62,867 nt of DNA from an uncultured bacterium (GCA_964561495.1 CAZLPW010000006.1:1-62867), one strand, 5' to 3'; numbered from the stretch's first letter, positions 5,015 to 60,515 are shown. Notes: generated by a model from the sequence alone, not told the origin. Program-made: numbers and translations.

Positions 5015-9483
<4,469 letters not shown>

Positions 9484-26094: not shown

Positions 26095-26095
26095 A

Positions 26096-26599: not shown

Positions 26600-26616
26600 A
26601 AAATATTTTTTTAAAA

Positions 26617-27906: not shown

Positions 27907-27977
27907 TATATTATTGTACTATGCAAATTAATCTGTTATTTGGGTTATTTGAATTTTAAAGGGTCAGTCAGTTTTTA

Positions 27978-29657: not shown

Positions 29658-29705
29658 CTTTGCTATGTGTTTTAATTATTAAACTGTATATAATGGTAAG
29701 TTTTT

Positions 29706-30251: not shown

Positions 30252-30252
30252 A

Positions 30253-39793: not shown

Positions 39794-40932
39794 TGAGTAT
39801 TAGCCCAGAAAATTTTTATAATGTCTTACAAAAAGAAGGTGTAATATTCTATACTGGAGTACCCGACTCTTTGTTAAAGCCTTTCTGTTTTTATGTTAAT
39901 GATAATGTTCCAGAAGAAAGACATTTAATTGCAGCAAATGAAGGGAATGCAATTGCAGTAGCAGCGGGTTATAATTTAGGTACTGGTAAAATACCGCTTG
40001 TCTATATGCAAAACTCTGGTTTAGGGAATGCTGTAAATCCGTTATTATCTTTGTGCGATCCTGATGTTTATTCAATCCCTATGATTTTACTGATTGGATG
40101 GAGAGGCTGTCCAGGTATTCCTGATGAGCCTCAGCATATTAAACAGGGTAAAATTCAAATTGCATTATTAGAAACGATGGGGATACCCCATTGCACTATT
40201 TCAAATGACGATGATCAATTTGAAGAAAAATTAAAAAATGGAGTGAACACTGCCCATACTAATAAAATGCCATATGCAATTTTAGTTAAAAAAGGTTCAT
40301 TTAATGAATATAGCCCTCGCTCGGTCAATAAAAATATAAGCTCATTATTTCGAGAGGAAGCACTTGAAATAATTTTATCAAGATTGCCAAGTGATACGAT
40401 AATAATCTCAACCACAGGCAAAACCTCAAGAGAAGTTTTTGAAATTAGACAAAGAAATAATTCTGATCATGATTCTGATTTCCTAACAGTTGGTTCAATG
40501 GGACATTGTTCCTCAATTGCATTGGGAATTGCAATTTCAAGGCCAAGTTTAAAAATAATTTGTATAGATGGTGACGGGTCCCTTATTATGCATATGGGTG
40601 GGCTTTCTACAATAGGGAAAATTAAACCAAAAAACTTTTTTCACATTCTGATGAATAATGAGGTACATGAATCTGTTGGTGGCCAGAGTACTGCATCAAA
40701 AAATATAGATATGCAGGCTTTAGCAAAAGCGAATGGTTATGAAAAGTTATTTTTTGCTGAAGATACTAACAGTCTTAAAAACCAATTTAATAATTTAATT
40801 TTACAGAATGGGCCAAGTTTTTTAGAGATTAAGGTTGAGCCTGGTTCTCGAGATGACCTTGGTCGGCCTTCTCTGAGCCCTGCTGAGAACAAAGAGCTTT
40901 TTGTTCGTTCTTTAAGGAAAGAGAATCCTTGA
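39793..40932 (+). CDS. ppd: Phosphonopyruvate decarboxylase (ThDP-dependent)
   Basis: 379 aa from a GTG start overlapping the upstream TAG. N-terminus FYTGVPDSLLK. ThDP motif IDGDGSLIMHMGGLSTIG...HILMNNEVHESVGGQ. Confidence 0.85.
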   Translation: MSISPENFYNVLQKEGVIFYTGVPDSLLKPFCFYVNDNVPEERHLIAANEGNAIAVAAGYNLGTGKIPLVYMQNSGLGNAVNPLLSLCDPDVYSIPMILLIGWRGCPGIPDEPQHIKQGKIQIALLETMGIPHCTISNDDDQFEEKLKNGVNTAHTNKMPYAILVKKGSFNEYSPRSVNKNISSLFREEALEIILSRLPSDTIIISTTGKTSREVFEIRQRNNSDHDSDFLTVGSMGHCSSIALGIAISRPSLKIICIDGDGSLIMHMGGLSTIGKIKPKNFFHILMNNEVHESVGGQSTASKNIDMQALAKANGYEKLFFAEDTNSLKNQFNNLILQNGPSFLEIKVEPGSRDDLGRPSLSPAENKELFVRSLRKENP

Positions 40933-42035
40933 ACTATATTTATAACCCAGTAGAGGTTGTAGTAGGGAGTGGCTCTATAATTGAAGTTTCAAAAGCAATT
41001 AATTCAAGAAAATATATCGTTGTTAGTAGTAAAGGGTATAGTTCAAGAGGTTGGAATAAATATTTTCCAGATGCTGAGTTTATTATTGATAATATCAGTC
41101 CAAATCCAACCATAACTCAGTTGTTTGAGAATATTAAACTTTTAAGAAAAAAAAGCTTTGATATTATTGTCGCTATTGGTGGTGGAAGCGTTATTGATAT
41201 TTCAAAAGGATTAAGTGTTCTTAAAATTGATAATAAAAGCAGTCTTATAGACTGTTTAAATGGTTCTATGTCTGTATCAAGAAAAGAACATGATTTGATT
41301 GCGATACCAACTACTTCAGGCACAGGTGCAGAGGTTACACCTTTTGCAACTATATGGGATGATCAAAATAAAAGAAAGCTATCGTTACAGTCAAAATTTT
41401 TGTTCCCAAATCATGCAATTATTGATGGAGGTCTTTCATCATCTCTTGGGTTTAGGATGACTGCTATATCGGGTTTAGACGCGTTGTCACATTCTTTTGA
41501 ATCACTTTGGAATAAAAACTCCACTCCATATTCAAAGTCTATTGCATTTCATGCTATAGAAATTATACTTCAAACTCTGCCAGATGTTTTGGATAACCCA
41601 AATAGTTTAGAAAAAAGAACCAGAATGGCATGGGCTAGTATGTTAGCGGGGCTATGTATATCTCAAACTAAAACAGCAATAGCTCATTCGATGTCTTATC
41701 CCTTGACTAGCCATTTAGGTGTGCCTCATGGTTTAGCTTCGGGCATATTTCTTCGCCAAATCTTGCATTATAATAAAGCAAATGATAATACCGGAAGCGT
41801 TGATGAGATTTATAGCAAACTTTCAGATGAAGTTAATTTAGAAGAGAAGCTGAAATCATTGTATCGAAAATTGAATCAAAAAAACCTTTTTGAATCTATA
41901 AAATCAAGTCAATCAAAAGTTTACTCATTAGCGCCTGAAATGAATAACCCAACACGATCTGTTAACAATATAGTAAAAGTTTCTCCTGAGGGTATTAAAA
42001 ATATTTTAGATAATTTTTTCAATGAATATTGTTAG
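40929..42035 (+). CDS. Iron-containing (group III) alcohol dehydrogenase; candidate phosphonoacetaldehyde reductase
   Basis: 368 aa from a TTG start; the conserved N-terminus YNPVEVVVGSGSI precedes any ATG. Motifs GGGSVIDISKG, PTTSGTGAEVT; His-rich metal site (LSHSFESLW, AIAHSMSYPL, VPHG). Positioned directly after ppd. Confidence 0.7.
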   Translation: MNYIYNPVEVVVGSGSIIEVSKAINSRKYIVVSSKGYSSRGWNKYFPDAEFIIDNISPNPTITQLFENIKLLRKKSFDIIVAIGGGSVIDISKGLSVLKIDNKSSLIDCLNGSMSVSRKEHDLIAIPTTSGTGAEVTPFATIWDDQNKRKLSLQSKFLFPNHAIIDGGLSSSLGFRMTAISGLDALSHSFESLWNKNSTPYSKSIAFHAIEIILQTLPDVLDNPNSLEKRTRMAWASMLAGLCISQTKTAIAHSMSYPLTSHLGVPHGLASGIFLRQILHYNKANDNTGSVDEIYSKLSDEVNLEEKLKSLYRKLNQKNLFESIKSSQSKVYSLAPEMNNPTRSVNNIVKVSPEGIKNILDNFFNEYC

Positions 42036-42038
42036 TTT

Positions 42039-43157
42039 ATGTCTTTAATCAGAGAGATTACGGATATTCGAATGTTTTTTAAGCTTGCCAAAGATAATTC
42101 GGATATAACATTTTATTCGGAGAGTGGTATCTATTATCAAAATTTTAGAGGCACTATTAAAGAAATAATAGCAGGATCAGATTTGTATATTTATTATATA
42201 ACATCAGACATCAAGGATCCTATTTTTGATTTTAAACACGAGCGTCTAACTTCATTTTATATTAATAGACTTATATCCTTTTTTTTTCCATTTATTAATA
42301 CAAAAACCTTGATAATGACTATGGCAGATTTAGATCAATACCATATTAAAAGATCTATAAATAAAGTCAATCATATTTATATGTTCCATGCTATAAATAG
42401 TGTCCACATGCAATACAACCAAAAAGCTTTTGACTCATATGATACAATATTTTGCGTTGGTCCGCATCACATAAATGAAATTAGAGAAACCGAAAAACTA
42501 TATAATCTTCCCAAAAAAAAATTAGTTGAAGTTGGATATAGTCTCCTTGAAGATATTGAAAAAAAATATGATGATTCCTTAATCGCTAAGAATAAAATTT
42601 TAATTGCTCCATCTTGGAATTCTGGAAACATTTTAGAATCTTGTATTGACGAAATTTTGGAAAAGCTTATTCCATCTAGCTATCAGGTTGTTGTGCGTCC
42701 CCATCCGGAATTTTTAAGGAGAAGTAAAGATAAAGTCATTGAATTACAAAAACAGTATGTTAATTATGGAAATATTAAAATAGAAACAGAATTGACTAAT
42801 TCAAAAAATATATTAGAATCGGCGATCTTGATAACTGATTGGTCTGGAATTGCCATCGAATTTCTATGGGGTATGTTGAAACCTGTAATATACATCAATA
42901 CAGAAAAAAAAATTCATAATAGTGAATATAAGAAAATCAATTTAGAACCAATTGAAGATTCAATTCGTTATTCCAGTGGCATTACATTGGAAATGTCTGA
43001 GATTGCAAAGATTGAGGAAAAAATAAATATGTCTTTTGAGGATATAAATCGGATTCGTGAAAAACTTATATTTGATCGCCAAAAAAACATTTTTAATTGG
43101 GGAAATTCCTCTAAAATTGCATCAGATTATATTATTGAATACTGTAAAGAAAGCTGA
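42039..43157 (+). CDS. Putative CDP-alcohol-type phosphotransferase of the TagB/TagF (Glyphos_transf) family
   Basis: 372 aa. ILIAPSWNSGN (cf. YAPTWR), VVVRPHPEF (conserved His), ILITDWSGIAIEF (cf. LITDYSS). The assignment rests on weak motif similarity only. Confidence 0.45.
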   Translation: MSLIREITDIRMFFKLAKDNSDITFYSESGIYYQNFRGTIKEIIAGSDLYIYYITSDIKDPIFDFKHERLTSFYINRLISFFFPFINTKTLIMTMADLDQYHIKRSINKVNHIYMFHAINSVHMQYNQKAFDSYDTIFCVGPHHINEIRETEKLYNLPKKKLVEVGYSLLEDIEKKYDDSLIAKNKILIAPSWNSGNILESCIDEILEKLIPSSYQVVVRPHPEFLRRSKDKVIELQKQYVNYGNIKIETELTNSKNILESAILITDWSGIAIEFLWGMLKPVIYINTEKKIHNSEYKKINLEPIEDSIRYSSGITLEMSEIAKIEEKINMSFEDINRIREKLIFDRQKNIFNWGNSSKIASDYIIEYCKES

Positions 43158-43166
43158 TAATAAAAA

Positions 43167-44744
43167 TTGAATCTAAAAACTTATCCATACCATCCCTATT
43201 TTGTAGTTTTTTTTCAGGTCCTTTCAATTGCATCAATAAATATAAATGAGATTAGCTTCACTGTTTTATTTTACGTCTTCTCTTTTTTTTTAATATCGGT
43301 TCCAATTTTATTGTTTGTAAGCAATTTAATTATTGAAGCAAGAATTTCTGCTATAATTATTTCAATAAGTACTTTTTTTTTCTTTTCCTATGGTAGAGTT
43401 CTTGATTATTTTATAAAAAATCCTGTTGAAATAATTGATTTAGCAAGAAATAAGTTTTTTTTACCAATCTTTTTATTTTGCTTGATAATTACTTGGTTTT
43501 TAATAATAAAAAGTTATTTCATTAAAAATTATGCTGATTCAATAACTACATACGCGAATCAATTTTCAATTGGTCTTGTATTTATTGCTATTTTTACAAC
43601 CTGCCTAAATTATGACTGGACTCTTCTATTTTCTCAAAAAAATCAAGATGAAAAGAGTGAAATTTATGTTGATATGCAAACATTAGATAAATTGAATTAT
43701 CAGGGGATTTCACCAAAACCAAATATTTATTTTCTAATTTTTGATAGTTATCCGAGTTCAAATGTGTTAAATAATTACTATGCATTTAATGATAGTAATT
43801 TAGTTAATGATCTTAAAATACGTGGGTTTGATGTAAACCAGAATGCAAGAAGTAATTACTGTTTTACTGGTGGTTCCATCGGCTCTACATTGAGCATGCG
43901 GTATTTACATCTAGATAATGAATTTAAATCTTCTTACAACCAAGATAGTTATATTGATAGATTTTATGAAAATAATTATGTAATAAACAGATTGAAATCA
44001 GATGGCTATGATATAATTACGAATCTTTCTAAAAAATATAATAACAATAAAATAAAAAAGTCATTATTTTCTGATGATTTTATACAGTTAGTCATTCATC
44101 TTTCTATGTTTAGAATAATTGAAAAAGATTTAGTTGTTAATCAGCTCAGGAATGATATTCAATCCAAACTCAAGTTTCTTAAAAGTTTTATTCCAAATAA
44201 TCAACCAGTTTTTATTAATATCCATATAATGGTTCCTCATTCACCATTTGTTTTTAGGTATGATGGCTCTAGACCTAAATATTTTGAAAGTGCTTTTGGT
44301 AAATTTGAAGATAAAGCTAAGTTTATTGAACAGGTAAGGTTCGCGGGTAGAGAAATAATAAAAATTGTTGACAACATAAAATTTAATGACCCTGATGCAA
44401 TAATAATTGTCCAAGCTGACCATGGTTACGGAGGTGAGGATGATATGAAATATCTTAACAGAAACTCAATTGCGGCTATCGAAAATAAACGTGATCAAGT
44501 GCCGCCTTCAGATTATCTCGATCAAAGGTTTGGTATACTAAGTGCAATTTATTCTCCTATTGATCTTGGTATTAAAAAAAATTCTACACCTGTTAACCTA
44601 TTTAGATTTATTTTTAATAAGCTGTATGAAGAAAATAATGAATATTTGCCTGACAATTCATATTTCGCATTGATAAAACAACCATATAAATTTCACAACA
44701 TTACTGATAGCTTAAACAATATTAGTAGGCAATTAGCTGATTGA
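43167..44744 (+). CDS. Polytopic membrane protein with extracytoplasmic alkaline-phosphatase/sulfatase-fold domain (LtaS/EptA-like transferase)
   Basis: 525 aa from a TTG start. About 5 N-terminal TM helices, then NIYFLIFDSYPSS, NIHIMVPHSPFVF, IIVQADHGYGG, typical of the metal-dependent AP superfamily. Confidence 0.55.
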   Translation: MNLKTYPYHPYFVVFFQVLSIASININEISFTVLFYVFSFFLISVPILLFVSNLIIEARISAIIISISTFFFFSYGRVLDYFIKNPVEIIDLARNKFFLPIFLFCLIITWFLIIKSYFIKNYADSITTYANQFSIGLVFIAIFTTCLNYDWTLLFSQKNQDEKSEIYVDMQTLDKLNYQGISPKPNIYFLIFDSYPSSNVLNNYYAFNDSNLVNDLKIRGFDVNQNARSNYCFTGGSIGSTLSMRYLHLDNEFKSSYNQDSYIDRFYENNYVINRLKSDGYDIITNLSKKYNNNKIKKSLFSDDFIQLVIHLSMFRIIEKDLVVNQLRNDIQSKLKFLKSFIPNNQPVFINIHIMVPHSPFVFRYDGSRPKYFESAFGKFEDKAKFIEQVRFAGREIIKIVDNIKFNDPDAIIIVQADHGYGGEDDMKYLNRNSIAAIENKRDQVPPSDYLDQRFGILSAIYSPIDLGIKKNSTPVNLFRFIFNKLYEENNEYLPDNSYFALIKQPYKFHNITDSLNNISRQLAD

Positions 44745-44753
44745 AAGATAAAA

Positions 44754-45737
44754 ATGAAGAATGAGGGAAAAATATTTATCACTGGTGCTACAGGGTTTAT
44801 CGGTTCACATCTATCAGAGTTATTGGTTAAAGAAGGGTATGAAGTCGTAGCTTTTGACAGGTATAACCCAAACAACAATTGGGGATGGCTAGAGCATTCA
44901 GATTTGAAAAATGAAATGGATGTTATCTTAGGTGATATCAGAGATTTTGATTCAGTAAATAAATCAATGGAAGGCTGTAGAACTGTATTTCACCTCGCTG
45001 CGTTGATCGGCATTCCATATTCATATGTTTCACCCTTAGCCTATATCCGCACAAATATTGAAGGCACCTATAATATACTTGAGGCCGCTAAGGGTAGGGA
45101 TCTTACGCAGGTTTTAATTACTTCCACCAGCGAGACCTATGGCACAGCTCAATATACGCCAATGGATGAAAGCCATCCTTTGGTAGGGCAATCGCCTTAC
45201 TCTGCATCTAAAATTTCGGCTGATCAACTGGCTATTAGTTATATTAAATCTTATGATTTACCCGTAAAAATTGTTCGTCCTTTTAATACTTATGGACCAA
45301 GACAATCAGCTAGGGCTATTATACCGACAGTAATTTCTCAATTATTGAATAATGAAAAGACGATTAATCTAGGAAATCTAAGCCCCACAAGAGATTTAAC
45401 TTTTGTAAAAGACACATGCAATGGCTTTATAGAAATATATAGATCTGAGACCTTGTTTGGTGAAGTAATAAATATTGGAATGAATGAAGAAATTTCAATT
45501 GAAGATTTGGTTAGTTTAATAGCAAAACAAATGGGTAAAAAAGTTAAAATCATTTCAACTCACGAACGTGTTCGTCCAAAAAGTAGCGAGGTTGAGAGTT
45601 TGATCTGCGATAATAAAAAAATAAAGGTTAATACTAGATGGGAACCAGAATACAGCCTTGAGAAGGGAATATCCGAGACAATTGAATGGATGAAAAAAAA
45701 CCATAATCTTTACAAATCAGATCAGTACAATGTCTAG
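44754..45737 (+). CDS. legB: NAD-dependent nucleotide-sugar 4,6-dehydratase (LegB-like)
   Basis: 327 aa. Motifs IFITGATGFIGSHL, TSTSETYG, YSASKISAD (YxxxK), RPFNTYGPRQ. First gene of a Leg-type gene order. Confidence 0.62.
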   Translation: MKNEGKIFITGATGFIGSHLSELLVKEGYEVVAFDRYNPNNNWGWLEHSDLKNEMDVILGDIRDFDSVNKSMEGCRTVFHLAALIGIPYSYVSPLAYIRTNIEGTYNILEAAKGRDLTQVLITSTSETYGTAQYTPMDESHPLVGQSPYSASKISADQLAISYIKSYDLPVKIVRPFNTYGPRQSARAIIPTVISQLLNNEKTINLGNLSPTRDLTFVKDTCNGFIEIYRSETLFGEVINIGMNEEISIEDLVSLIAKQMGKKVKIISTHERVRPKSSEVESLICDNKKIKVNTRWEPEYSLEKGISETIEWMKKNHNLYKSDQYNV

Positions 45738-46890
45738 TATACCATTATCTATCCCAAATTTTAATGGAAATGAATGGAAATACGTAAAAGAATGTTTAGA
45801 TACAAACTGGATTTCTTCCGCTGGAAAATATGTTGAATTATTCGAAAGGAAAATTTGCCAATATACTATGGCAAAATACGCTGTTGCTTGTGTTAACGGC
45901 ACATCTGCAATACAGATAAGTCTTCAGCTGGCAGGGGTTCAGAAAGGTGATGAAGTTATTGTTCCTTCGCTAACTTTTATTGCGCCTGTAAACGCAATTT
46001 CCTATAATGGGGCTAATCCCATTTTCATGGATTCTGATGATTTTTATAATATTGATGTAAAAAAAACCAATGATTTTATAAGGAATGAAACTGTTTTTAA
46101 AAATGGATTTACATATAATAAAAAGACAAAGAATAGAATATCAGCAATTTTGCCTGTGCATGTTTGGGGAAACGCGGTAAACATAGATGAACTTGTTCCT
46201 ATTTGCGAAGAAAGAAATATTGTTATTATTGAGGATGCAAGTGAGAGTTTGGGGACCTTTTATAATTCTGGGACTTATAAAGGAAAGCATACTGGCACGA
46301 TAGGTTTACTTGGTTGTTTGTCATTTAATGGGAATAAAATTATTACCACAGGTGGAGGAGGAATGATTCTGACAAATGATAAAAAATTAGCGCAAAAAGC
46401 CAAATATTTGACCACCCAGGCAAAAGATGATTCAATAAGGTATGTACATGATGAAATTGGTTACAACTTCCGCCTCACCAATATTCAGGCAGCTATTGGA
46501 CTTGCTCAACTTGAACAATTATCAGATTTTTTAAAAAATAAAAAATTTTTGTATAGATCTTATAAAAAAGCTATCCAAAAAATAGAAGGTCTCAGCATAT
46601 CAAAAACCCCAGTATATGCAAATAATAACCATTGGATAAATGTATTAAGAATTGAATATCATTTATATAAAAAAGATAGGGAAGGGCTTATGTTTTTATT
46701 AGAAAAAAATAAAATACAAACACGGCCTGTATGGATGCTAAATCATTTTCAAAAGCCATATAAAAAATATCAATCCTATAAAGTAAATAAATCAAAAAAG
46801 CTAATTGAAAAAAGTTTGTGTTTACCATCATCCTCCAGTTTAACCAAAGACGAATTCAAAAATATAATAAATTGTTTAAGGGTTAATTAA
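45730..46890 (+). CDS. legC: DegT-family sugar 4-aminotransferase (LegC-like)
   Basis: 386 aa. Motifs NGTSAIQISL, EDASESLG, LSFNGNKIITTGGGGM (PLP Lys). 8-nt overlap with the dehydratase gene. Confidence 0.72.
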   Translation: MSSIPLSIPNFNGNEWKYVKECLDTNWISSAGKYVELFERKICQYTMAKYAVACVNGTSAIQISLQLAGVQKGDEVIVPSLTFIAPVNAISYNGANPIFMDSDDFYNIDVKKTNDFIRNETVFKNGFTYNKKTKNRISAILPVHVWGNAVNIDELVPICEERNIVIIEDASESLGTFYNSGTYKGKHTGTIGLLGCLSFNGNKIITTGGGGMILTNDKKLAQKAKYLTTQAKDDSIRYVHDEIGYNFRLTNIQAAIGLAQLEQLSDFLKNKKFLYRSYKKAIQKIEGLSISKTPVYANNNHWINVLRIEYHLYKKDREGLMFLLEKNKIQTRPVWMLNHFQKPYKKYQSYKVNKSKKLIEKSLCLPSSSSLTKDEFKNIINCLRVN

Positions 46891-46946
46891 CTATTTTCTT
46901 ACTTTTAAATGATTATAAAAAAATTAATGTTTTTAGTATTTGAGAA

Positions 46947-47606
46947 TTGAAAAAGAATATTATTATAGTTGGCACTGGAGGAGTAGCTAAAGAGGTTTTA
47001 TTCCTAATAAGAGAAATTAATAAAGTAAAACCTCAGTGGGATCCAATAGGTTTAATCGATCAAAACCCAGAAAAAGTTGGGAACAAATTTTGTGATATTA
47101 AGATTATTGGTACTGACGATTACATATTAAATTATTTAGAAGAAATAAATATTGTAATTGCTATAGGAAATCCATCTTTGAGGAAAAAAGTTTTTGAATT
47201 ATATAGAGATAATAAATTTTTAAATTTTCCAAACTTAATTCATCCCAATGTAGTTGGTGATTGGGAAAATATCGATATTGGAATTGCGAATATAATATGC
47301 CCTGGAACTGTTTTTACCACTTCACTGGAGATTGGCAATTGCAATTATTTTAACATGACATGTACTATTGGGCATGATGTTAAAATGGGAAGTTATAATG
47401 TCCTTAACCCAATGGTTTCTTTATCTGGCGGTGCAAATTTAAAGGATGAAAATCTATTTGGAACTGGTTCAAGAGTTTTACAACGTATAGAAATATGTAA
47501 TAATTGCATCATAGGGGCGGATGCTTTGGTTACAAAAAATATTAAAATCTCTGGAACTTACATTGGCTCACCTGCGAGATTGATATTAAAAAATGAGAAG
47601 GAATAA
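46947..47606 (+). CDS. NeuD/PglD/LegH-family sugar N-acyltransferase (N-terminal Rossmann-like + hexapeptide beta-helix)
   Basis: 219 aa from a TTG start. Motif IIIVGTGGVAKEV, followed by left-handed beta-helix repeats (IGHDVKMGSYNVLNPMVSLSGGANL...). Confidence 0.7.
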   Translation: MKKNIIIVGTGGVAKEVLFLIREINKVKPQWDPIGLIDQNPEKVGNKFCDIKIIGTDDYILNYLEEINIVIAIGNPSLRKKVFELYRDNKFLNFPNLIHPNVVGDWENIDIGIANIICPGTVFTTSLEIGNCNYFNMTCTIGHDVKMGSYNVLNPMVSLSGGANLKDENLFGTGSRVLQRIEICNNCIIGADALVTKNIKISGTYIGSPARLILKNEKE

Positions 47607-47609
47607 TTA

Positions 47610-47912
47610 ATGAAAGAAAAAATATTAGACATTATATATGAAACTTTAGATGAAATAAATGAAGTTTTAGGGGAAAGACAAAAAATTGAAAAAACAAAAG
47701 GAGCAAAATTATATGGCAAAAATGGACCACTTGATTCATTGGGGTTAGTTAATTTAATGGCTAGTCTTGAACAAAATTTTGAAGATTATTTTGATGTTAG
47801 TATAATTATTGCAAGCGAAAAAGCAATGTCTCAAAAAAATAGTCCATTTAGAACCATTGATTCACTCTCTAATTATATAAAAGAGCTAATTGAGGAAGAA
47901 TTAAATGAATGA
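47610..47912 (+). CDS. Acyl carrier protein
   Basis: 100 aa, acidic. The phosphopantetheine attachment motif LDSLGLVNLM sits at the expected helix-2 position. Confidence 0.75.
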   Translation: MKEKILDIIYETLDEINEVLGERQKIEKTKGAKLYGKNGPLDSLGLVNLMASLEQNFEDYFDVSIIIASEKAMSQKNSPFRTIDSLSNYIKELIEEELNE

Positions 47913-48606
47913 TAATCAGATTATGATAATTACTGGAGCGAGTAAAGGTATTGGAAAATATCTTGCTGAATATTACTCTAAGAAGGGGTTTCATGTCATC
48001 GGTTGTAGTAGAAAAAGTATTGATCATAAATTAGATAATTATCACCATTTTATACTTGATGTTTCAGATGAGTCGGAAGTTAAGAATATGATTTCATCTA
48101 TAAGGAAAAAACATGGTAAAGTAGATATTTTGATTAACAATGCTGGAATAGCTTCTATGAATCATGCATTGCTTACAGATATTAGAACAGTAAATAAAAT
48201 TTATAATACAAATTTTTTTGGTACTTTTCTTTTTTGTAGAGAAGCATCAAAAATAATGGCTAGAAAAAAATTTGGTAGAATTATAAATTTTGTTACTGTT
48301 GCAGTTCCTCTAAATTTAGAAGGTGAGGCAATCTACGCATCCTCAAAGTCATCTGTGTTATCATTTACTAAAATTTTAGCTAAAGAGGTTGCAGAAAATG
48401 GTATAACCGTTAACGCTATCGGCCCTACCCCAGTTAAAACTGATTTGATTCGATCAGTTCCTGAGGAGAAAATAAAAAATTTGATACAAATGCAAGCAAT
48501 AAAAAGGTTTGGAGAATTTTCTGATATCTCTAATATAGTTGATTTTTATATTAGTCCTCGAAGCGGGTTTATTACAGGTCAAGTGATGTATTTAGGAGGA
48601 GTTTGA
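47905..48606 (+). CDS. Short-chain dehydrogenase/reductase (FabG-like 3-oxoacyl reductase)
   Basis: 233 aa. Motifs ITGASKGIGK, NNAG, YASSKSS (YxxxK). Overlaps the ACP gene by 8 nt. Confidence 0.8.
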   Translation: MNDNQIMIITGASKGIGKYLAEYYSKKGFHVIGCSRKSIDHKLDNYHHFILDVSDESEVKNMISSIRKKHGKVDILINNAGIASMNHALLTDIRTVNKIYNTNFFGTFLFCREASKIMARKKFGRIINFVTVAVPLNLEGEAIYASSKSSVLSFTKILAKEVAENGITVNAIGPTPVKTDLIRSVPEEKIKNLIQMQAIKRFGEFSDISNIVDFYISPRSGFITGQVMYLGGV

Positions 48607-49943
48607 TGTCTATAAAATTTTTAACTGAAATTTTTTATCACAATTCATCAAATACCGCGATAGTTTGGAAAGATAAAATTTTTAGTTATGGTTGGCTTTT
48701 GGATCGTGTAAAATATTGGATAGAAGAAATAAAAAAAAAAGAAATAAAACCTGGATCCGTGGCTGTTGTTGAAGCAGATTTTTCTCCAAACTCAGTCTCC
48801 CTTATGTTGGCATTAATTGATCATAATTGTATTTTTGTTCCAATAACAAAGTCAGTTGCTAATAAAAAAAAAGATTTCATAAAAATATCCCAGGCAGAAG
48901 TATTATTTTTTATTGATGATAATGATATAGCTGAAATTTCCTTTTTAGATAATATTTCGAATAGTAATTATTATATTCAATTAAGAGCACTGAATCATCC
49001 AGGGTTAGTTTTATTTTCTTCTGGCTCAACTGGAGTGAGTAAAGGTTCAGTACATGATGTAATTAAAATTTTCAAAAAATTTAAAGTTAAAAGGCATAGG
49101 CTTAGTGCAATTTCTTTTTTGCTTTACGATCATATAGGGGGGTTCAATACTTTACTTTACATATTGTCAAACGCAGGGAAATTAGTAACTATACAAGATA
49201 GGAGTCCTGATAGTGTATTAAGCATAGTTGAAAAATATAAAGTAGAGTTACTCCCTACATCACCTACTTTTATTAACTTAATTTTGTATAGTGAAGCATA
49301 TAAGCGCCACAGTTTAAAATCTCTTAAAACTATAACCTACGGCACTGAACCAATGCCGGAAAGTACTCTTAAAAAATTCAATAGTTTATTCCCCCAAATA
49401 AAGCTCTTGCAAACATATGGATTATCAGAAGTAGGTATATTAAGATCAAAGTCGAAGAGTTCTGACTCTTTATGGGTGAAAGTTGGTGGAGAGGGGTTCA
49501 AGACAAGAGTAGTAGATGGCATGTTAGAAATAAAGGCTGATTCTGCTATGCTTGGATATCTCAATGCTAAAAGTCCATTTACTGAAGATGGATGGTTCAA
49601 AACTATGGATGCGGTTGAATTAGATGGTGAATATCTTAAAATTAAAGGGAGGAAATCAGAGATTATTAATGTAGGAGGAGAAAAAGTATATCCACAAGAG
49701 GTTGAGGATAAAATATTAGAAATAGAGGAAGTTTTAGAAGCAAAAGTTTTTTCAGAAAAAAATATTATAATGGGGAATATCATATGTGCAGAGATTAATG
49801 CTAAAATAAATATGGAACCTAAAGACATTAAAAAGAAGGTTATTGCACATTGTAGAAATAGTTTAGCGCCATTTATGGTCCCAGTTAAAGTAATTGTGAG
49901 TAATCAAAATCAGCATAGTAGTCGGTTTAAGAAAAAAAGGTAA
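48603..49943 (+). CDS. AMP-dependent synthetase/ligase (acyl-ACP/CoA ligase, ANL superfamily)
   Basis: 446 aa. Motifs LFSSGSTGVSKGSV (A3), QTYGLSE (A5), GWFKTMD (A7), KGRKSEIINVGGEKVYPQEVE (A8). Confidence 0.8.
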   Translation: MMSIKFLTEIFYHNSSNTAIVWKDKIFSYGWLLDRVKYWIEEIKKKEIKPGSVAVVEADFSPNSVSLMLALIDHNCIFVPITKSVANKKKDFIKISQAEVLFFIDDNDIAEISFLDNISNSNYYIQLRALNHPGLVLFSSGSTGVSKGSVHDVIKIFKKFKVKRHRLSAISFLLYDHIGGFNTLLYILSNAGKLVTIQDRSPDSVLSIVEKYKVELLPTSPTFINLILYSEAYKRHSLKSLKTITYGTEPMPESTLKKFNSLFPQIKLLQTYGLSEVGILRSKSKSSDSLWVKVGGEGFKTRVVDGMLEIKADSAMLGYLNAKSPFTEDGWFKTMDAVELDGEYLKIKGRKSEIINVGGEKVYPQEVEDKILEIEEVLEAKVFSEKNIIMGNIICAEINAKINMEPKDIKKKVIAHCRNSLAPFMVPVKVIVSNQNQHSSRFKKKR

Positions 49944-49951
49944 TTTATAGT

Positions 49952-50959
49952 ATGAAAACAATTATTATTGCTGAAGCCGGGGTAAATCATAATGGTTCCA
50001 TAGAAACAGCAAAAAAATTAATTGATGTAGCTTCAAACGCTAAACCTGATTTTGTCAAATTCCAAACTTTTGTAACCGAAGAAGGTATAATGAAAATTGC
50101 AGAAAAGGCTGAATACCAAAAAAACAACACTAATAAAAATGAATCACAGTTTGATATGGTAAAAAAACTTGAGCTTGACCGAGAAGCGCACGAAGAATTG
50201 ATTCAATATTGTAAGAAAAAGAAAGTTAAATTTTTGTCTACTGCTTTTGATCTTCCAAGCATTAATCTTCTAAATGATCTGGATATCCCTCTATATAAAA
50301 TTCCATCAGGTGAGATAACCAATCTACCTTATCTAAGACGTATTGGTAGTATGGGAAAGCCGATTATAATGTCTACAGGGATGTGTACGCTTCAGGAGGT
50401 GCTTACCGCATTAAATATTTTATTGGATGTTGGAGCAAAAAAAGATCAAATCACTATACTACACTGTAATACTGAATATCCAACGCCTTTTGAACATGTG
50501 AATTTAAAAGCTATGCTTACAATCAGAGATAAATTAGGTGTATCTGTAGGCTACTCTGACCATACTTTAGGAATTAATGTACCCATAGCAGCTGTAGCAA
50601 TGGGCGCTTCAGTTATTGAAAAACATTTTACCTTAGATAGAAATTTACCTGGTCCTGACCATAAAGCTAGTTTGGAGCCAGAAGAGTTAAAAGCGATGGT
50701 AAGTGGAATTAGAAATATAGAAAAATCTTTAGGCAATGGGGTTAAAATACCAACTCCGAGTGAACATAATAATATTTCTGTAGCACGGAGATCAATTGTT
50801 GCTAGAGAATATATTAAAAAGGGCGAAATTTTTACAAATGAGAACCTTACAACCAAACGACCAGGCATAGGTATTTCGCCAATGGATTGGGATAATGTAA
50901 TAGGTAAAAAAGCCGAAAAAGATTATCTGCCAGACACATTAATAGAGCAAACCTTATAA
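49952..50959 (+). CDS. neuB: Nonulosonic acid synthase (NeuB/LegI family)
   Basis: 335 aa. Motifs IIAEAGVNHNGS, KFQT, YSDHTLG, and a C-terminal SAF domain (ARRSIVA...G..FT.ENL..KRPG.GISP). Confidence 0.88.
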   Translation: MKTIIIAEAGVNHNGSIETAKKLIDVASNAKPDFVKFQTFVTEEGIMKIAEKAEYQKNNTNKNESQFDMVKKLELDREAHEELIQYCKKKKVKFLSTAFDLPSINLLNDLDIPLYKIPSGEITNLPYLRRIGSMGKPIIMSTGMCTLQEVLTALNILLDVGAKKDQITILHCNTEYPTPFEHVNLKAMLTIRDKLGVSVGYSDHTLGINVPIAAVAMGASVIEKHFTLDRNLPGPDHKASLEPEELKAMVSGIRNIEKSLGNGVKIPTPSEHNNISVARRSIVAREYIKKGEIFTNENLTTKRPGIGISPMDWDNVIGKKAEKDYLPDTLIEQTL

Positions 50960-51020: not shown

Positions 51021-51722
51021 ATGATTATATCAATTCATCAACCTCAATATTTACCGTGGCTACCGTTTTTTGATAAAGTCGATAAAAGTGATTATTTTAT
51101 ATATTTAGATAATGTTCAATTTCAAAAAAATGGCGTCCAAAATAGAAACAAGATTAAGACTCCACATGGAGAGTTATGGTTAACTGTTCCTGTCAGTAGA
51201 TCAGGGTTAGATACTAAAATTAAAGATGTTAAAATAAATGGAGAATTATTTAAGAAAAAGCATATTAAATCAATTAAGCAAAATTATTCTAGCGCTCCCT
51301 ACCTTAATAATTATTTAGATCAAATTGAAAAAATTATTGATATTGATTATTCCAATTTGGCAGATCTTAATATTGCGTTAAGCGAATGGTTTTTTAAACA
51401 ATTTCAGATTAATACAATTAGATTAAGAGCTTCAGAATTGGATGCAAGAGGATCAAAGGGTGATTTAGTGCTAGATATTTGTGAAAAACTTGATGCAAGT
51501 GTGTATATATCTGGTCGCGGAGCAAAAGACTACCAAGATGAAGAAAAATTTTCCAGAAAAAATATTACTATCAAATATCAACAATATAATTCACCAATCT
51601 ACAAACAATGTTGGCCAAAACTGGGATTCGTCAAAGATCTTTCATCTTTAGATTTGTTGTTGAACGAAGGGCCAAAGAACTCAAGATCAATTTTATTGAA
51701 AGGTAGAAATGGTTATAAATAG
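51021..51722 (+). CDS. WbqC-family protein (function unknown)
   Basis: 233 aa. ISIHQPQYLPWLPFFDKV...YLDNVQFQKNGVQNRNKIKT is the characteristic WbqC N-terminus. Confidence 0.7.
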   Translation: MIISIHQPQYLPWLPFFDKVDKSDYFIYLDNVQFQKNGVQNRNKIKTPHGELWLTVPVSRSGLDTKIKDVKINGELFKKKHIKSIKQNYSSAPYLNNYLDQIEKIIDIDYSNLADLNIALSEWFFKQFQINTIRLRASELDARGSKGDLVLDICEKLDASVYISGRGAKDYQDEEKFSRKNITIKYQQYNSPIYKQCWPKLGFVKDLSSLDLLLNEGPKNSRSILLKGRNGYK

Positions 51723-51761
51723 CAGCGCTCATAAAACTGGACGACTTTTTTTTATTGTTCT

Positions 51762-52832
51762 ATGAATATTATTCCCCATTCTTCATCTGACATTACAAAG
51801 AATGATATTGAATCTGTAATCAGTGTTCTTGAAGGCAATTTTGTTGGCTATGGTAGCAAGACAATTTCTTTAGAAAAGCAATTAGGTAAATTTATTAATG
51901 CTGATTATGTCTATGCTGTGAACACAGGATCATCTGCTTTATGGTTAGCTTTTAAAATTCTTAACTTACCCATAGGGTCAAAGGTTATCACTACGTCATA
52001 TTCATGTGTGGCTATAATTAATTCAATTTGCAATGCAGGATTAATACCAACTTTCGTTGATTTAGATTTAAATACTGTTAATGCTGATGTTGAAACAATA
52101 TTTAATGTTTGCAAATCATCTAGTGATATATGTGCTATTGTATTTCCTCATATAGGTGGTTATCCTTCTGAAATATCAATTCTAAAAAATTTAGATATAC
52201 CAATTATAGAAGATTGTGCAGCATCAATTGGGTCACTTACTTCAAATGGTCTTGTTGGTGCTCTTGGTGATATAGCAATTTTTTCTTTTGGTTCTACAAA
52301 GTTAATTACTGGTGGTAATGGTGGTGCTATTGCATTTAATAATAGGAAAAATGCTGAGCAAATGGAAAAGTTTCTTGATTATGAATTAAAAAATTTTAAT
52401 TATTTTGACGATAAGTTTGAAAATAAGGTTAATGAGCGAATGTCCAATTTGACTGCTGCTTTAACGCTATCTCAATTATCAAATTTGGATAATAATATAA
52501 GTTTAAGGCGTAAATATGCAAGTATGTATTCTGAGGAAATTAGTTTACATGATGATGCAACTTTTCCAAAAGAACCGCCTAATCAATGTTCTTTTTGGCG
52601 CTATATTTTCTTTTCATCACGTAGAGATGACTGGATATCTCATATGAAAAGTTTGGGAATTGATGCTCGACCATCTATTGCACATCAACTTTATAAATAT
52701 TTTGATTTAAAAAATAAAGATTTTCCTAATAGTGTCCGAGTTAATAATGATTTAGTTTCACTCCCTATTTACACCAGATTAACAGAGGGAGAGGTGAAAA
52801 GAATTATAAACGCTATAAAATCATTTAGATAA
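51762..52832 (+). CDS. DegT/DnrJ/EryC1-family aminotransferase
   Basis: 356 aa. Motifs NTGSSALWLA, EDCAASIG, FSFGSTKLITGGNGGA (PLP Lys). Confidence 0.7.
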   Translation: MNIIPHSSSDITKNDIESVISVLEGNFVGYGSKTISLEKQLGKFINADYVYAVNTGSSALWLAFKILNLPIGSKVITTSYSCVAIINSICNAGLIPTFVDLDLNTVNADVETIFNVCKSSSDICAIVFPHIGGYPSEISILKNLDIPIIEDCAASIGSLTSNGLVGALGDIAIFSFGSTKLITGGNGGAIAFNNRKNAEQMEKFLDYELKNFNYFDDKFENKVNERMSNLTAALTLSQLSNLDNNISLRRKYASMYSEEISLHDDATFPKEPPNQCSFWRYIFFSSRRDDWISHMKSLGIDARPSIAHQLYKYFDLKNKDFPNSVRVNNDLVSLPIYTRLTEGEVKRIINAIKSFR

Positions 52833-52834
52833 AT

Positions 52835-54049
52835 ATGTCCAAAATTAAAAAAATTAGCAAAGTATTAGCTATTACTTATAGCAGGTCAGAGTATGACTTA
52901 TTGAGTTATTTGTATAACGCTTTATCAGAAGATAATGAAATTGATTTTAGAATTTTAGCAGGTGGTGCGCATCTTAGTTCGCAATATAATTTATCTATCA
53001 ATCAGATTGTAGATGATGGGCATCAAATTTTAACAAAGATTGAGACACTTCTTGATAGTGATTCTGATGTTGGAAGAATAAAAAGTGCTGCTATACTAAT
53101 GATGGGAGCAATAGAGCCTATATCGGAATTTAATCCAGACCTTATAATTTATGCAGGTGATAGAGAAGAGGTCATGGTAGGAGCAATGATTTCTGGTTAT
53201 CTTAAAGTTCCAAGTATGCATTTTTTTGCTGGAGATCATGATTTAGATGGTTTAATTGATAATCCAATACGGCATGCAACATCAAGACTTTCTTCTTATC
53301 AAATAGTTTCAATTGATGAACATTACAAAAGGCTGATTGCAACTGGTTTAAATCCAGAACGTATTTATTGCATTGGCAGTTGTGCATTAGATAAATTTCG
53401 TTTAGAACCAAAATTATCTAAGAAAGAACTAATTAATAGATTAGGAAAGAAATATATCTTTGAAAGACCCTATGCTTTGGTTATTCATCATTCATTAATG
53501 GGCAAAGAGGATAGATCTATAATTGAACTGTCTAATATTATAGAATCACTTGATGAAAGAGGAATACCTATAGTAATAAATTCACCAAATATAGACCCAG
53601 GATCTAAAAAGTTGTTAAGGCTTATTAGTGATTATAATAATGATGATAAAAAACTTTTTATTAATAATCTTTCAAGATTAGAATTTGTAAATATTTATAG
53701 GCATGCAAATTTTCAGATCGGAAATTCAAGTTCAGGCATATGTGAAGCTGCTTCTATACCATTGCCTGTCGTTAATGTTGGTGATCGAATGATTGGGCGT
53801 AAATCTATGGGGAATGTCATATGGTGTAATGGTGATAAGAAAGTGATTGGTTCTTCGATTGATAAGGCCGTTAGTGAAGATTTCTACCTTAAAAAAGTTA
53901 AGGGAATAAAAAATATATATGGAGATGGTCATGCTTCAGAAAGAGCATTTAATTTGATAAAATCAATTGACCTAAGCAATTATGAAGAATTTAGGATTGA
54001 AGACCCTCTTAAGGTATTTAATGATTCAATGAAAAATAACAACAAATAA
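52835..54049 (+). CDS. neuC: Hydrolysing nucleotide-sugar 2-epimerase (NeuC/LegG family)
   Basis: 404 aa. Motifs AITYSRSEYDLL, YAGDREE, GNSSSGICEA. Lies in NulO gene context. Confidence 0.75.
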   Translation: MSKIKKISKVLAITYSRSEYDLLSYLYNALSEDNEIDFRILAGGAHLSSQYNLSINQIVDDGHQILTKIETLLDSDSDVGRIKSAAILMMGAIEPISEFNPDLIIYAGDREEVMVGAMISGYLKVPSMHFFAGDHDLDGLIDNPIRHATSRLSSYQIVSIDEHYKRLIATGLNPERIYCIGSCALDKFRLEPKLSKKELINRLGKKYIFERPYALVIHHSLMGKEDRSIIELSNIIESLDERGIPIVINSPNIDPGSKKLLRLISDYNNDDKKLFINNLSRLEFVNIYRHANFQIGNSSSGICEAASIPLPVVNVGDRMIGRKSMGNVIWCNGDKKVIGSSIDKAVSEDFYLKKVKGIKNIYGDGHASERAFNLIKSIDLSNYEEFRIEDPLKVFNDSMKNNNK

Positions 54050-54089
54050 TAATGATAAGAGTATTTTAGATAATGATTAAAAAAAAACA

Positions 54090-54755
54090 ATGAAAAAAAC
54101 CCTCGTAATTGCGCCACACCCTGATGATGAAACTCTAGGGTGCGGAGGAACACTTTTTCGTCATAAGTTAGAAGGGGATGATTTATATTGGTTAATTGTT
54201 ACATGCATTAGTAATAATTCAGGTTGGTCAAAGGATGAAGTAAATAGACGCAATGAAGAGATAGATAAAGTATCAAAAAAGTTTGCTTTTAAAGATGTTT
54301 TTAACCTTTCAATCCCTACAACGAAAATAGATACAATCCCTTTATCTGAATTAATTTCAAAAATAACAAATATTTACAAAAAGGTGGAACCAGAGATTAT
54401 TTATATGCCTTTTGTGGATGATGTGCATACAGATCATCGAATAATAGCTGAAGTTGTACAATCAACTTTTAAATGGTTTCGCAATCCCTTTATAAATAAA
54501 ATATTAATGTATGAAACTCCTTCTGAAACAGATTTTAATTTTATATCGCAGAGGAAATTTCATGCTAATGTATTTATAGATATATCCAACCATATAAAAG
54601 ATAAAATTGAAGCAATGAAGATCTATGAAAGTGAAATGGGTGAATTCCCCTTTCCGCGAAGTGAAAAAAGTATACGCTCGTTAGCAGCTTTGAGAGGTAG
54701 CCAGAGTGGATTTAAATCAGCGGAAGCCTTTGAACTTGTATTTGAACGAAAATAA
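54090..54755 (+). CDS. PIG-L/LmbE-family N-deacetylase
   Basis: 221 aa. Motifs LVIAPHPDDETLGCGGTL and VHTDHR (zinc ligands). Confidence 0.8.
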   Translation: MKKTLVIAPHPDDETLGCGGTLFRHKLEGDDLYWLIVTCISNNSGWSKDEVNRRNEEIDKVSKKFAFKDVFNLSIPTTKIDTIPLSELISKITNIYKKVEPEIIYMPFVDDVHTDHRIIAEVVQSTFKWFRNPFINKILMYETPSETDFNFISQRKFHANVFIDISNHIKDKIEAMKIYESEMGEFPFPRSEKSIRSLAALRGSQSGFKSAEAFELVFERK

Positions 54756-55802
54756 ATGAAGGATATTACAGTAAATCAAAGTATCAGTATTCGAGATGCT
54801 ATGAAAGCTCTTGATTCAACAGCAGAAAAATGTCTTTTAGTAGTAGATGAAAATAATAAATTGCTTGGAACTCTTACTGATGGTGATATTAGACGAAGTA
54901 TTCTTTCAGGAGCGAAATTTTCAGTAGATATTTCAGATTGTTATAATTCCAAACCGATTACATTGGTTAAAGGAAAATATAAAGTAAATGATGTTAAAAA
55001 ATTGTTTAATGATAAAAAAATCGATTTAATTCCCATTATAGATCAAGAATTTGTTGTCGTAGATTTTGTTACATGGTCAACAATTAACGGAACCAAAAAA
55101 CCATCAAAATCACTTAATGATGTTAGCATTATTATAATGGCAGGTGGTAAAGGTAGTCGTTTACAACCCTTCACCAATGTATTACCAAAGCCATTAGTGC
55201 CTGTACAAGAAAAGCCGATTATAGAACATATTATTGATCGATTTTCTGAATTTGGATGCTCTCATTTTTACTTATCAATAAACTATAAAGGAAAAATACT
55301 TAAAGCTTATTTTGAAGATTTGGAACCTGCTTATAAAGTAAATTATATTGAGGAGAAAGAACCTCTTGGGACGGCTGGTAGCTTGCGTTTAATCTCTGGA
55401 AAATTCAATAAACCTTTTTTTGTGACCAACTGTGATATCATTATCAAAACGGATTACGCAAAACTATATGATTTCCATTGCAAGGGTGGTTATGATGTGA
55501 CTCTGGTTGCTTCATTAAAAGAGCATATTATTCCTTATGGAACTTGCGAATTAAATAGTGATGGTAATCTCTCTCATATTAATGAGAAACCGCATTACGA
55601 TTTTCTCATTAATACTGGTCTGTATGTGCTTAATCCTGATGTCTTAAATCTGATCCCAAAAGACAAGTTTTATCATATTACTCATCTTATTGAAGATGTA
55701 AAAAACAATGGAAAGAAGGTGGGTATTTTCCCTGTTGATGATGATAAATGGATTGATGTGGGTCAGTGGAATGAATATAAGAAGGTTATAGATTTATTAT
55801 GA
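54756..55802 (+). CDS. ptmE: CBS-pair + sugar-1-phosphate nucleotidyltransferase (PtmE-like)
   Basis: 348 aa. N-terminal tandem CBS region (LLVVDENNKLLGTLTDGDIRR), then IIMAGGKGSRLQPFTNVLPKPLVPV. Confidence 0.78.
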   Translation: MKDITVNQSISIRDAMKALDSTAEKCLLVVDENNKLLGTLTDGDIRRSILSGAKFSVDISDCYNSKPITLVKGKYKVNDVKKLFNDKKIDLIPIIDQEFVVVDFVTWSTINGTKKPSKSLNDVSIIIMAGGKGSRLQPFTNVLPKPLVPVQEKPIIEHIIDRFSEFGCSHFYLSINYKGKILKAYFEDLEPAYKVNYIEEKEPLGTAGSLRLISGKFNKPFFVTNCDIIIKTDYAKLYDFHCKGGYDVTLVASLKEHIIPYGTCELNSDGNLSHINEKPHYDFLINTGLYVLNPDVLNLIPKDKFYHITHLIEDVKNNGKKVGIFPVDDDKWIDVGQWNEYKKVIDLL

Positions 55803-58624: not shown

Positions 58625-58649
58625 AAAAATAATACTAAGAGTAAATGAA

Positions 58650-60468: not shown

Positions 60469-60515
60469 GAACATAATTGTATTCAGAAATTTTACTTTGA
60501 TACGAATCAAAAAAG

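Follow-up and report, generated by a model that had tools for sequence, protein, structure and literature searches.

An ACP-SDR-ligase cassette in a legionaminic-acid-type locus and its possible role in non-acetyl N-acylation of a nonulosonate

The window analysed in this work is the whole 62,867-nucleotide (nt) stretch GCA_964561495.1 CAZLPW010000006.1:1-62867 from an uncultured marine bacterium that is represented in JGI and ENA marine metagenomes as well; it is AT-rich (32% G+C), and nearly all of its genes are located on the + strand. The subject of the analysis is a run of seven consecutive + strand genes at 44754-50959, leading from a LegB-like dehydratase to a NeuB/LegI nonulosonate synthase (Table 1), in which the genes coding for an acyl carrier protein (ACP), a FabG-like short-chain dehydrogenase/reductase (SDR) and an ANL-superfamily ligase stand between the gene for a LegH-like N-acyltransferase and that for the synthase. 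All seven had been listed in an earlier note on this DNA and were recovered here by Pfam and NCBIfam matches and, for the ACP, by a fold model. The window genes can be soundly assigned to a legionaminic acid (Leg)-type pathway represented by LegB, LegC, LegH-like, LegI, LegG, PtmE-like and LegF proteins, this being a gene-based assignment, as NeuB-family membership leaves the stereochemistry of the product (D-glycero-D-galacto) unfixed at the sequence level. For the LegB-like protein TIGR04180 is the best model by far, the PseB model giving only 64 bits.

The ACP, SDR and ligase genes, hereafter called the cassette, overlap each other, as the earlier note had it: the first two by 8 nt and the last two by 1 nt or 4 nt, depending on whether the ligase starts at the ATG at 48606 or the TTG at 48603. 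Only 3 nt separate the ACP gene from the acyltransferase gene, and 8 nt the ligase gene from the NeuB gene. Signs of a recent insertion were sought and not seen, the cassette showing no distinctive G+C or GC3 in a gene-by-gene comparison and no + strand terminator in a scan. The annotated window holds no ketosynthase domain anywhere, no LuxE or LuxC domain, and no other acyltransferase within 20 kb of the cassette.

Table 1 Genes of the legionaminic-acid-type locus and the cassette in the window
Feature	Position	Strand	Supporting matches
LegB-like NAD-dependent 4,6-dehydratase	44754-45737	+	TIGR04180 461 bits (cut-off 475); PF16363 GDP_Man_Dehyd E = 3e-72
LegC-family pyridoxal phosphate (PLP) aminotransferase (makes the 4-amine)	45730-46890	+	TIGR04181 484 bits (cut-off 420)
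LegH-position NeuD/PglB/VioB-family left-handed β-helix (LbH) N-acyltransferase	46947-47606	+	TIGR03570 172.6 bits (cut-off 160.8); PglD_N domain
Divergent 100-aa acyl carrier protein (ACP)	47610-47912	+	LDSLGLVNLM; Ser43, predicted phosphopantetheine site
FabG-like classical SDR, NADP(H) type	47905-48606	+	adh_short E = 3e-45; ITGASKGIG, YASSK
Compact 445-aa ANL adenylate-forming ligase	48606-49943	+	PF00501 94 bits (cut-off 29.9); PF13193 26.7 bits (cut-off 24.5)
NeuB/LegI nonulosonate synthase	49952-50959	+	TIGR03569 505 bits (cut-off 400)
WbqC-family protein and second DegT aminotransferase	51021-52832	+	PF08889 E = 2e-70; PF01041 E = 2e-62
NeuC/LegG-type hydrolysing 2-epimerase	52835-54049	+	TIGR03568 318 bits (cut-off 236)
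PIG-L family de-N-acetylase	54090-54755	+	PF02585 E = 2e-22
PtmE-like CBS and nucleotidyltransferase protein (GDP-sugar supply)	54756-55802	+	PF00571, PF00483
CMP-nonulosonate synthetase, LegF-like	55799-56536	+	PF02348 E = 2e-26

The product of the first cassette gene has no Pfam match at E ≤ 0.1 and so does not pass the PF00550 PP-binding model, which is matched weakly by 10 of 35 members of its family (best E = 0.0022); its matches to the NCBIfam ACP and DltC models are also weak (E = 2e-4 to 3e-3) and all under the cut-off. Ser43 (LDS43L) is invariant in family alignments of 35 and 30 sequences and was aligned to Ser36 of E. coli AcpP by hhalign of the family profile (E = 1.9e-4). The AlphaFold2 (AF2) model (pLDDT 87.8) is a four-helix bundle with helices at residues 2-19, 43-61, 70-74 and 83-98, Ser43 starting helix 2, and ACPs make up eight of its ten best Foldseek matches in the PDB, including 2lki, 9ihq_T and 3lmo. 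Some homologues carry the source names "acyl carrier protein" or DltC. On this alignment and model evidence the protein is accepted as a divergent ACP, and its phosphopantetheinylation is predicted.

The best PDB matches of the SDR are FabG 3-oxoacyl-ACP reductases (E = 1e-38), and with 173 bits against a cut-off of 298 it fails the FabG equivalog model TIGR01830, which makes it, by its sequence, a classical SDR related to FabG and not a FabG orthologue. Aligned to E. coli FabG, it keeps N86, T138, Y151 and K155 and has Arg at the T37 position. Across its family, including the SDRs of loci L001-L090, N86, Y151 and K155 are invariant, as is the Arg at the T37 position, and Thr replaces the FabG catalytic Ser138 in 82% of the members. 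The N-(T/S)-Y-K residues and the NADP(H)-type Arg (2'-phosphate site) suit a biosynthetic reductive step, and the SDR is proposed to act as a ketoreductase on an ACP-bound acyl group.

The ligase motifs SSGSTGKSKA, YGLSE, TGD, GRKSEIINVGGEKV and a C-terminal KK are invariant in the family alignment, the mean column identity of which is 75% over 25 sequences, and the ANL fold was confirmed by the AF2 model (pLDDT 86.6). Its top Foldseek matches are the stand-alone adenylation enzymes Thr1 and CytC1, followed by oxalyl- and malonyl-CoA synthetases. HMMER places the invariant D175-H176 of the ligase at Y206-H207 of 4-chlorobenzoyl-CoA ligase, a site lining the substrate pocket of that enzyme. Amino-acid-activating enzymes have an amine-binding Asp at the site equivalent to D175; an Asp at this position is unusual among acyl-CoA ligases and may bind a polar substrate group. 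A polar substrate is likely, with hydroxy, amino and dicarboxylic acids among the candidates, and the enzyme is proposed, from sequence features and model, to be an acid:ACP ligase.

Ligase homologues number in the thousands, the best 120 being 60-69% identical to the window enzyme and the family overall 53-69% identical. A search for the ligase in one genome per species gave more than 600 pattern matches; of the first 600, 581 proved to be relatives, and those among the matches listed came from Chloroflexota, Acidobacteriota, Planctomycetota, Verrucomicrobiota, Gammaproteobacteria, Cyanobacteria, Gemmatimonadota, Nitrospinota and others. The neighbourhoods of 83 non-redundant ligase-based loci were clustered, 55 of them having adequate flanks. 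SDR relatives are present in 77 of the 83 loci and ACP relatives in 75, with the same-strand order ACP-SDR-ligase in about 75, and apart from these two no neighbour is universally kept beside the ligase. The recurrence of this order in loci of many phyla argues that the arrangement in the window is not due to chance; by this comparison, ACP-SDR-ligase is a conserved portable unit around a dedicated carrier protein.

The most frequent neighbours of the cassette are acyltransferase-like genes, one of which lies within 2.5 kb in at least 38 of the 55 well-flanked loci, a lower bound because singleton neighbours were left unclassified. The type varies: GNAT proteins of four kinds (17 loci), AAC(3)-like Antibiotic_NAT (eight), plain LbH (six), LbH/PglD_N (five), PseH (five) and FemAB-like (one). 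A deacetylase-like cluster is represented in 23 of the 55 loci, two of the three clusters counted being confirmed NodB-type polysaccharide deacetylases, and most cassette loci are devoted to polysaccharides, with genes for glycosyltransferases, Wzz/Wzy, sugar aminotransferases and deacetylases. Read most simply, these neighbourhoods suggest one particular acyl-ACP as the product of the cassette, which would be used by whichever N-acyltransferase the locus carries. A broader proposal, that the triad moves horizontally as a general donor cassette of a non-acetyl group and in more than ten phyla supplies one small acyl group to transferases whose folds are of at least four unrelated types (GNAT/PseH, LbH/PglD/LegH, AAC(3)-like and FemAB-like), is put forward tentatively, as we consider it slightly more likely to be wrong than right.

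Some loci depart from the common layout. In five Planctomycetota loci (L048, L052-L054 and L074) a gene resembling ketoacyl-ACP synthase III (KAS III) accompanies the cassette, and L048, L052 and L053 additionally have a second SDR and a PglD_N acyltransferase, which may extend the acyl chain. Two Anaerolineae loci (L003, L013) carry a reduced cassette of ACP and ligase without the SDR, the neighbour being a PALP-family enzyme in place of an acyltransferase.

The cassette is found directly before PseH in five pseudaminic acid (Pse) loci, two of which come from the cultured strains Algibacillus agarilyticus RQJ05 and Gayadomonas joobiniege G7. The A. agarilyticus locus (L039) has the order PseB-PseC-PseF-x-PseI-PseG-ACP-SDR-ligase-PseH, where all the named Pse genes score above their NCBIfam cut-offs (PseH 121 bits vs 93) and the 321-aa product of gene x gave no family match. 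The gene clusters of this locus recur in nearly identical order in an Alteromonadaceae metagenome-assembled genome (MAG; L059) and in G. joobiniege (L088), and in these two, as well as in a Tichowtungia MAG (L014) and a Verrucomicrobiota MAG (L015), a GNAT of the PseH cluster directly follows the ligase. The strongest argument for the N7 acyl group as the target is that in Pse and Leg loci alike the cassette stands beside the enzyme acylating the 4-amine, although the two enzymes have different folds. A coupling of the cassette to N-acylation, and to the N7 step in particular, is well supported by comparative genomics, and the most likely role of the cassette in the window is to provide the nonulosonate with an acyl group other than acetyl.

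In the proposed mechanism, the ANL ligase would adenylate a small carboxylic acid and load it onto the phosphopantetheine of ACP Ser43, and the NADPH-type SDR would modify the tethered acyl group, most simply from 3-oxo to 3-hydroxy. The LegH-type LbH transferase would then take the acyl group from the ACP, and not acetyl from CoA, as gene adjacency and comparative genomics suggest. The acceptor would be the 4-amino group of the GDP-linked 4-amino-4,6-dideoxy-GlcNAc intermediate, the acylated nitrogen of which would, after the action of LegG and LegI, become N7 of a Leg5Ac7(acyl) sugar. That the LegH-like enzyme uses acyl-ACP is plausible, the arguments for and against it being about equally strong in our judgement; counted in its favour is the lack of a nearer partner in the window, where the 3-nt gap and the 8-nt and 1-nt overlaps join the four genes. 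For the reading as a whole, in which an inserted cassette feeds a non-acetyl acyl group via the ACP to the LegH-like enzyme for N7, we likewise see the scales as level. ACP-dependent N-acylation, as put forward in the earlier note, is partly supported: the existence of the unit, its habitual N-acyltransferase neighbour and its position at the N4 step in the five PseH loci speak for it, while the choice of donor is contested by the relatives of the acyltransferase that live without the cassette.

The best PDB match of the window acyltransferase is VioB (7txp, E = 1.9e-24), and its catalytic His143 in the IGHD motif is conserved. Homologues were traced to their source contigs and to 80 metagenomic loci. 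The closest of them (40-53% identity) belong to about 16 compact Leg loci without an ACP module, in which NeuB comes directly after the acyltransferase and which in several cases show the full order LegB-LegC-acyltransferase-NeuB-NeuC-PtmE-LegF. Such loci bear out the description of the window's gene order as interrupted, since they mark the cassette as an insertion at the LegH/LegI junction. They also weigh against acyl-ACP as the donor, because with such relatives the window acyltransferase is by descent an ordinary LegH, which presumably uses acetyl-CoA. In other cassette loci the adjoining PglD_N acyltransferases share no more than 21-32% identity with the window enzyme and give no sign of a co-evolved clade, so that co-evolution of acyltransferase and cassette was rejected on both grounds. 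In addition, two loci (L092, L098) have a LegH-like acyltransferase after LegC (52% and 48% identity, respectively) and a separate downstream GNAT beside a window-type ACP-SDR pair, a layout which implies that in loci of this Leg-like kind another transferase can be the one served by the carrier module. At the protein level, the FabG ACP-docking residues R129 and R172 are not kept in the SDR family. For the ligase, phmmer and hmmsearch against solved structures gave generic ANL matches only (E = 1e-16 to 1e-25), and the Foldseek list is flat (E 1e-29 to 1e-26, 16-20% identity). The prediction of its specificity, recommended in the earlier note and made here by comparing sequence and fold, therefore returned no substrate call.

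The GNAT-ACP-SDR segment occupies 10217-11996 in L098 and 13232-15005 in L092; no ligase is in view after the SDR in either, and in L092 the sequence after the SDR has no ligase-like start in any frame. The open reading frame (ORF) after the SDR in L098 resembles a metallo-beta-lactamase fold, judged by eye from the translation.

Two further relatives of the acyltransferase keep company with carrier genes. In the Leg locus L103 the order is LegC-KAS III-ACP (PP-binding)-ketoreductase (KR)-acyltransferase-...-NeuB-NeuC-PtmE-LegF, with an acyltransferase 46% identical to that of the window. Locus L146 has an acyltransferase (40% identity) followed by ACP, SDR, AMP ligase and LuxE genes, which is the set known from Aeromonas; its SDR is 36% identical to that of the window, its ligase was undetected at the thresholds used, and no sugar pathway was recognised. 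Together they indicate that the clade of the window acyltransferase repeatedly associates with carrier modules. Between the LegH-like gene and NeuB, L103 also contains a gene for an AAA_21 (AbiEii-like) ATPase and two ORFs of unknown function (5958-8179).

The cassette might instead serve a different site, with the LegH-like enzyme acetylating N7 from acetyl-CoA and the acyl-ACP being used either at N5 of the nonulosonate or its precursor, after deacetylation by PIG-L and through the WbqC-family or an unrecognised transferase, or on a different amino sugar of the same polysaccharide. The cassette-free Leg loci of the nearest acyltransferase relatives fit this explanation, as do L092 and L098, which retain a LegH-like gene while a GNAT adjoins the ACP-SDR pair; moreover, tblastn in the loci of acyltransferase relatives gave no WbqC or PIG-L match and a single weak one for the second DegT (L160, 27% identity), and the deacetylase-like genes in 23 of the 55 cassette loci would suit de-N-acetylation followed by re-acylation. 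Yet WbqC accompanies the cassette in none of the 83 ligase-based loci and has neither a recognisable acyltransferase signature nor a PDB relative, the LegH-like gene 3 nt away is the only acyltransferase gene adjoining the window cassette, and it is the sole PseH of the Pse loci that adjoins the cassette there. We regard use at another site, the main rival of the N7 reading, as unlikely. WbqC itself was set aside as an alternative transferase on the grounds just given, the literature search having yielded nothing useful on it. Far less probable, to the point of being hardly credible, is a cassette unrelated to glycan acylation that serves a lipid or small metabolite and reached the locus by an accident of insertion: although 17 of the 55 well-flanked loci have no recognised acyltransferase nearby and the PALP enzyme of L003 and L013 is accompanied by ACP and ligase alone, most cassette loci are polysaccharide loci, the cassette recurs at the same step of the Pse and Leg pathways, and in the window it is translationally coupled within a one-strand gene run of matching G+C.

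Even if the LegH-like enzyme does acylate N7 from the ACP, the group may differ from the one first thought of. By analogy, 3-hydroxybutanoyl is the leading candidate, though plausible only. Among the non-acetyl N-acyl groups known from bacterial amino sugars it is the commonest; the viosamine (Vio) system of Pseudomonas syringae and its analogue in L103 would produce it, an acetoacetate-loading ligase with a ketoreductase would be the shortest route to it, and where KAS III and another SDR are added, its extension to 3,5-dihydroxyhexanoyl would be possible. The same site and logic with an amino acid, a 2-hydroxy acid or a C4 dicarboxylic acid, the SDR adjusting oxidation state or stereochemistry, is possible but on the improbable side. 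It draws on the carrier-charging amino-acid adenylation enzymes Thr1 and CytC1 and the oxalyl-/malonyl-CoA synthetases at the top of the ligase's structural matches, on the family-invariant Asp175, placed by HMMER at the His207 site of 4-chlorobenzoyl-CoA ligase (presumably part of its pocket), on the DltC name of some ACP homologues and on the Aeromonas LuxE/LuxC set, where a 376.14-Da Pse derivative fits, by our arithmetic, a C4H7O3 acyl group and not 3-hydroxybutanoyl. Against this, the nearly flat structural E-values mean that the ranking says little, the closest solved relatives of the SDR are 3-oxoacyl-ACP reductases, 3-hydroxybutanoyl is the group suggested by the KAS III-ACP-KR analogue in L103 and by the P. 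syringae system, and the Aeromonas-type set belongs to another, more distant family, as seen from the SDR and the undetected ligase of L146.

N-acyl groups on Leg and Pse shape serotype, recognition by phages and antibodies, and mimicry of host sialic acid, and the genes behind most of the non-acetyl ones are not known; in Acinetobacter baumannii the Leg genes are reportedly alike in acetyl and 3-hydroxybutanoyl forms. If the broader proposal of a general donor cassette is true, the triad would be a single genetic marker predicting non-acetyl N-acylation of surface glycans, nonulosonic acids included, and PseH and LegH proteins annotated as acetyl-CoA-dependent would be acyl-ACP-dependent wherever it is adjacent. 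Glycan prediction from sequence would be improved, especially if several transferase folds are served, and enzymes for making modified nonulosonates would be gained. The part most worth testing is the apparent cross-phylum donor cassette serving several transferase folds, for which cultured carriers exist.

Some other genes of the window point to further decoration. The WbqC, second DegT and PIG-L genes are interleaved with NeuC (51021-54755), which points to a second modification, possibly at N5, and the PIG-L protein may prepare a second N-acylation site. Directly upstream of the Leg genes (38486-43157) are phosphonate genes coding for a phosphoenolpyruvate (PEP) mutase with an N-terminal cytidylyltransferase-like domain, a phosphonopyruvate decarboxylase-like thiamine pyrophosphate (TPP) enzyme, an iron-containing alcohol dehydrogenase (Fe-ADH) and a Glyphos_transf-like protein; their presence suggests phosphonate decoration of the same polysaccharide, e.g. 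with hydroxyethyl- or aminoethylphosphonate. Between them and LegB there is a 525-aa ORF (43167-44744) with a very low G+C of 26.8% and no Pfam match. After the CMP-sugar synthetase gene, the region 56505-62554 contains genes for a class-III aminotransferase, an SDR, a second cytidylyltransferase, this one fused to a cupin, a methyltransferase, a second class-III aminotransferase and a CN-hydrolase. Farther upstream (24030-32171) is a WbpE/B/D/A-like set consisting of DegT, GFO_IDH_MocA, a 175-aa LbH acetyltransferase and a UDP-sugar dehydrogenase, together with a fused ATP-sulfurylase/APS kinase and RmlC, RmlB and RmlA. By these gene sets the locus encodes a complex and probably sulfated glycan.

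Compared with known systems, the window acyltransferase shares with the canonical acetyl-CoA-dependent LegH, PglD and VioB enzymes the TIGR03570 family, the catalytic His and the position after LegC, the difference being that its gene is followed after 3 nt by the cassette and not by legI. The precedent named in the earlier note, rfbK-O of Vibrio cholerae O1, proved only loosely comparable, the closer ones being VioS/VioR/ACP/VioB, WfpC-G and Aeromonas orf1-3. The rfbK-O genes serve 4-amino-sugar N-acylation within an O-antigen locus; they comprise an ACP, an ANL-type ligase, LuxC/LuxE-like enzymes and an Fe-ADH and are not known to include a FabG-like SDR. The Fe-ADH of the window (at 40929) belongs to the phosphonate genes. 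In the literature searched, which left out subscription journals, no account was found of a ligase-primed triad as a general cassette or in a Leg pathway, or of PseH or LegH tested with acyl-ACP.

The group II polar-flagellin glycosylation islands of Aeromonas have the order pseH-orf1 (ACP)-orf2 (FabG)-orf3 (AMP ligase)-luxE-luxC, and enterobacterial islands list the same gene kinds (Acp/FabG/CaiC/LuxE/LuxC); the ACP, FabG and ligase genes have been read there only as "fatty acid synthesis" or possible "liposugar" genes (PMC7874193, PMC4875605). Likened by gene kinds, these islands and the window share an ACP-SDR-AMP ligase run adjoining a nonulosonate N-acyltransferase gene, but the islands belong to a Pse pathway with the GNAT PseH and contain LuxE and LuxC, which the window lacks, and the only set with LuxE seen here (L146) is distant. 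A Pse derivative of 376.14 Da and an "unknown 102 Da" unit in the same glycan have been reported for Aeromonas piscicola AH-3 (PMC7874193). By our arithmetic, 376.14 Da is the mass of a Pse5Ac7Ac residue (316.13 Da) in which a C4H7O3 acyl group, e.g. dihydroxybutanoyl or O-methylglyceroyl, takes the place of one acetyl. The composition C4H6O3 matches the 102-Da unit, which would fit a product of the pseH-adjacent ACP-FabG-ligase-LuxE-LuxC genes.

The wfpC-G genes of Flavobacterium psychrophilum code for two KAS proteins, the ACP WfpD, the KR WfpF and the PglD homologue WfpG and are linked to N-(3,5-dihydroxyhexanoyl) on Qui2NAc4N, the prediction that WfpG takes the acyl group from WfpD resting on gene content and the solved glycan structure (PMC6519341). 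A PglD-family transferase, a locus-specific ACP and the 4-amine of a 2-acetamido-4-amino-2,4,6-trideoxyhexose as predicted acceptor are common to this system and the window; there, however, the chain is built by ketosynthases with no ligase loading, and the sugar is of the UDP-linked bacillosamine type and is not made into a nonulosonate. The 3-hydroxybutanoyl transferases FdhC and QdhC have been reported without mention of an ACP (PMC4869667).

The viosamine island of P. syringae contains vioS (KAS III), acp, vioR (3-oxoacyl-ACP reductase) and the NeuD-family vioB, and deletion of vioB or vioR leaves flagellin without N-(3-hydroxybutanoyl)viosamine, as supported by mutants and mass spectrometry (PMC3927599). 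The window differs in having no KAS III, with priming of the ACP by the ANL ligase proposed instead, in its GDP-linked Leg precursor as acceptor in place of dTDP-viosamine, and in the divergent 100-aa type of its ACP; having no ketosynthase, its module is not a member of the KAS III-primed Vio/Wfp group, though it may work alike. ACP-dependent N-acylation of 4-amino sugars by NeuD/PglD-family enzymes is already a proposed principle, and L103 has the P. syringae layout (KAS III-ACP-KR-acyltransferase) inside a Leg pathway. Common to the P. syringae system and the window are a carrier protein dedicated to the locus, a reductase of the FabG-like kind, the family to which the transferase belongs and a nucleotide-linked 4-amino-4,6-dideoxyhexose as the acceptor.

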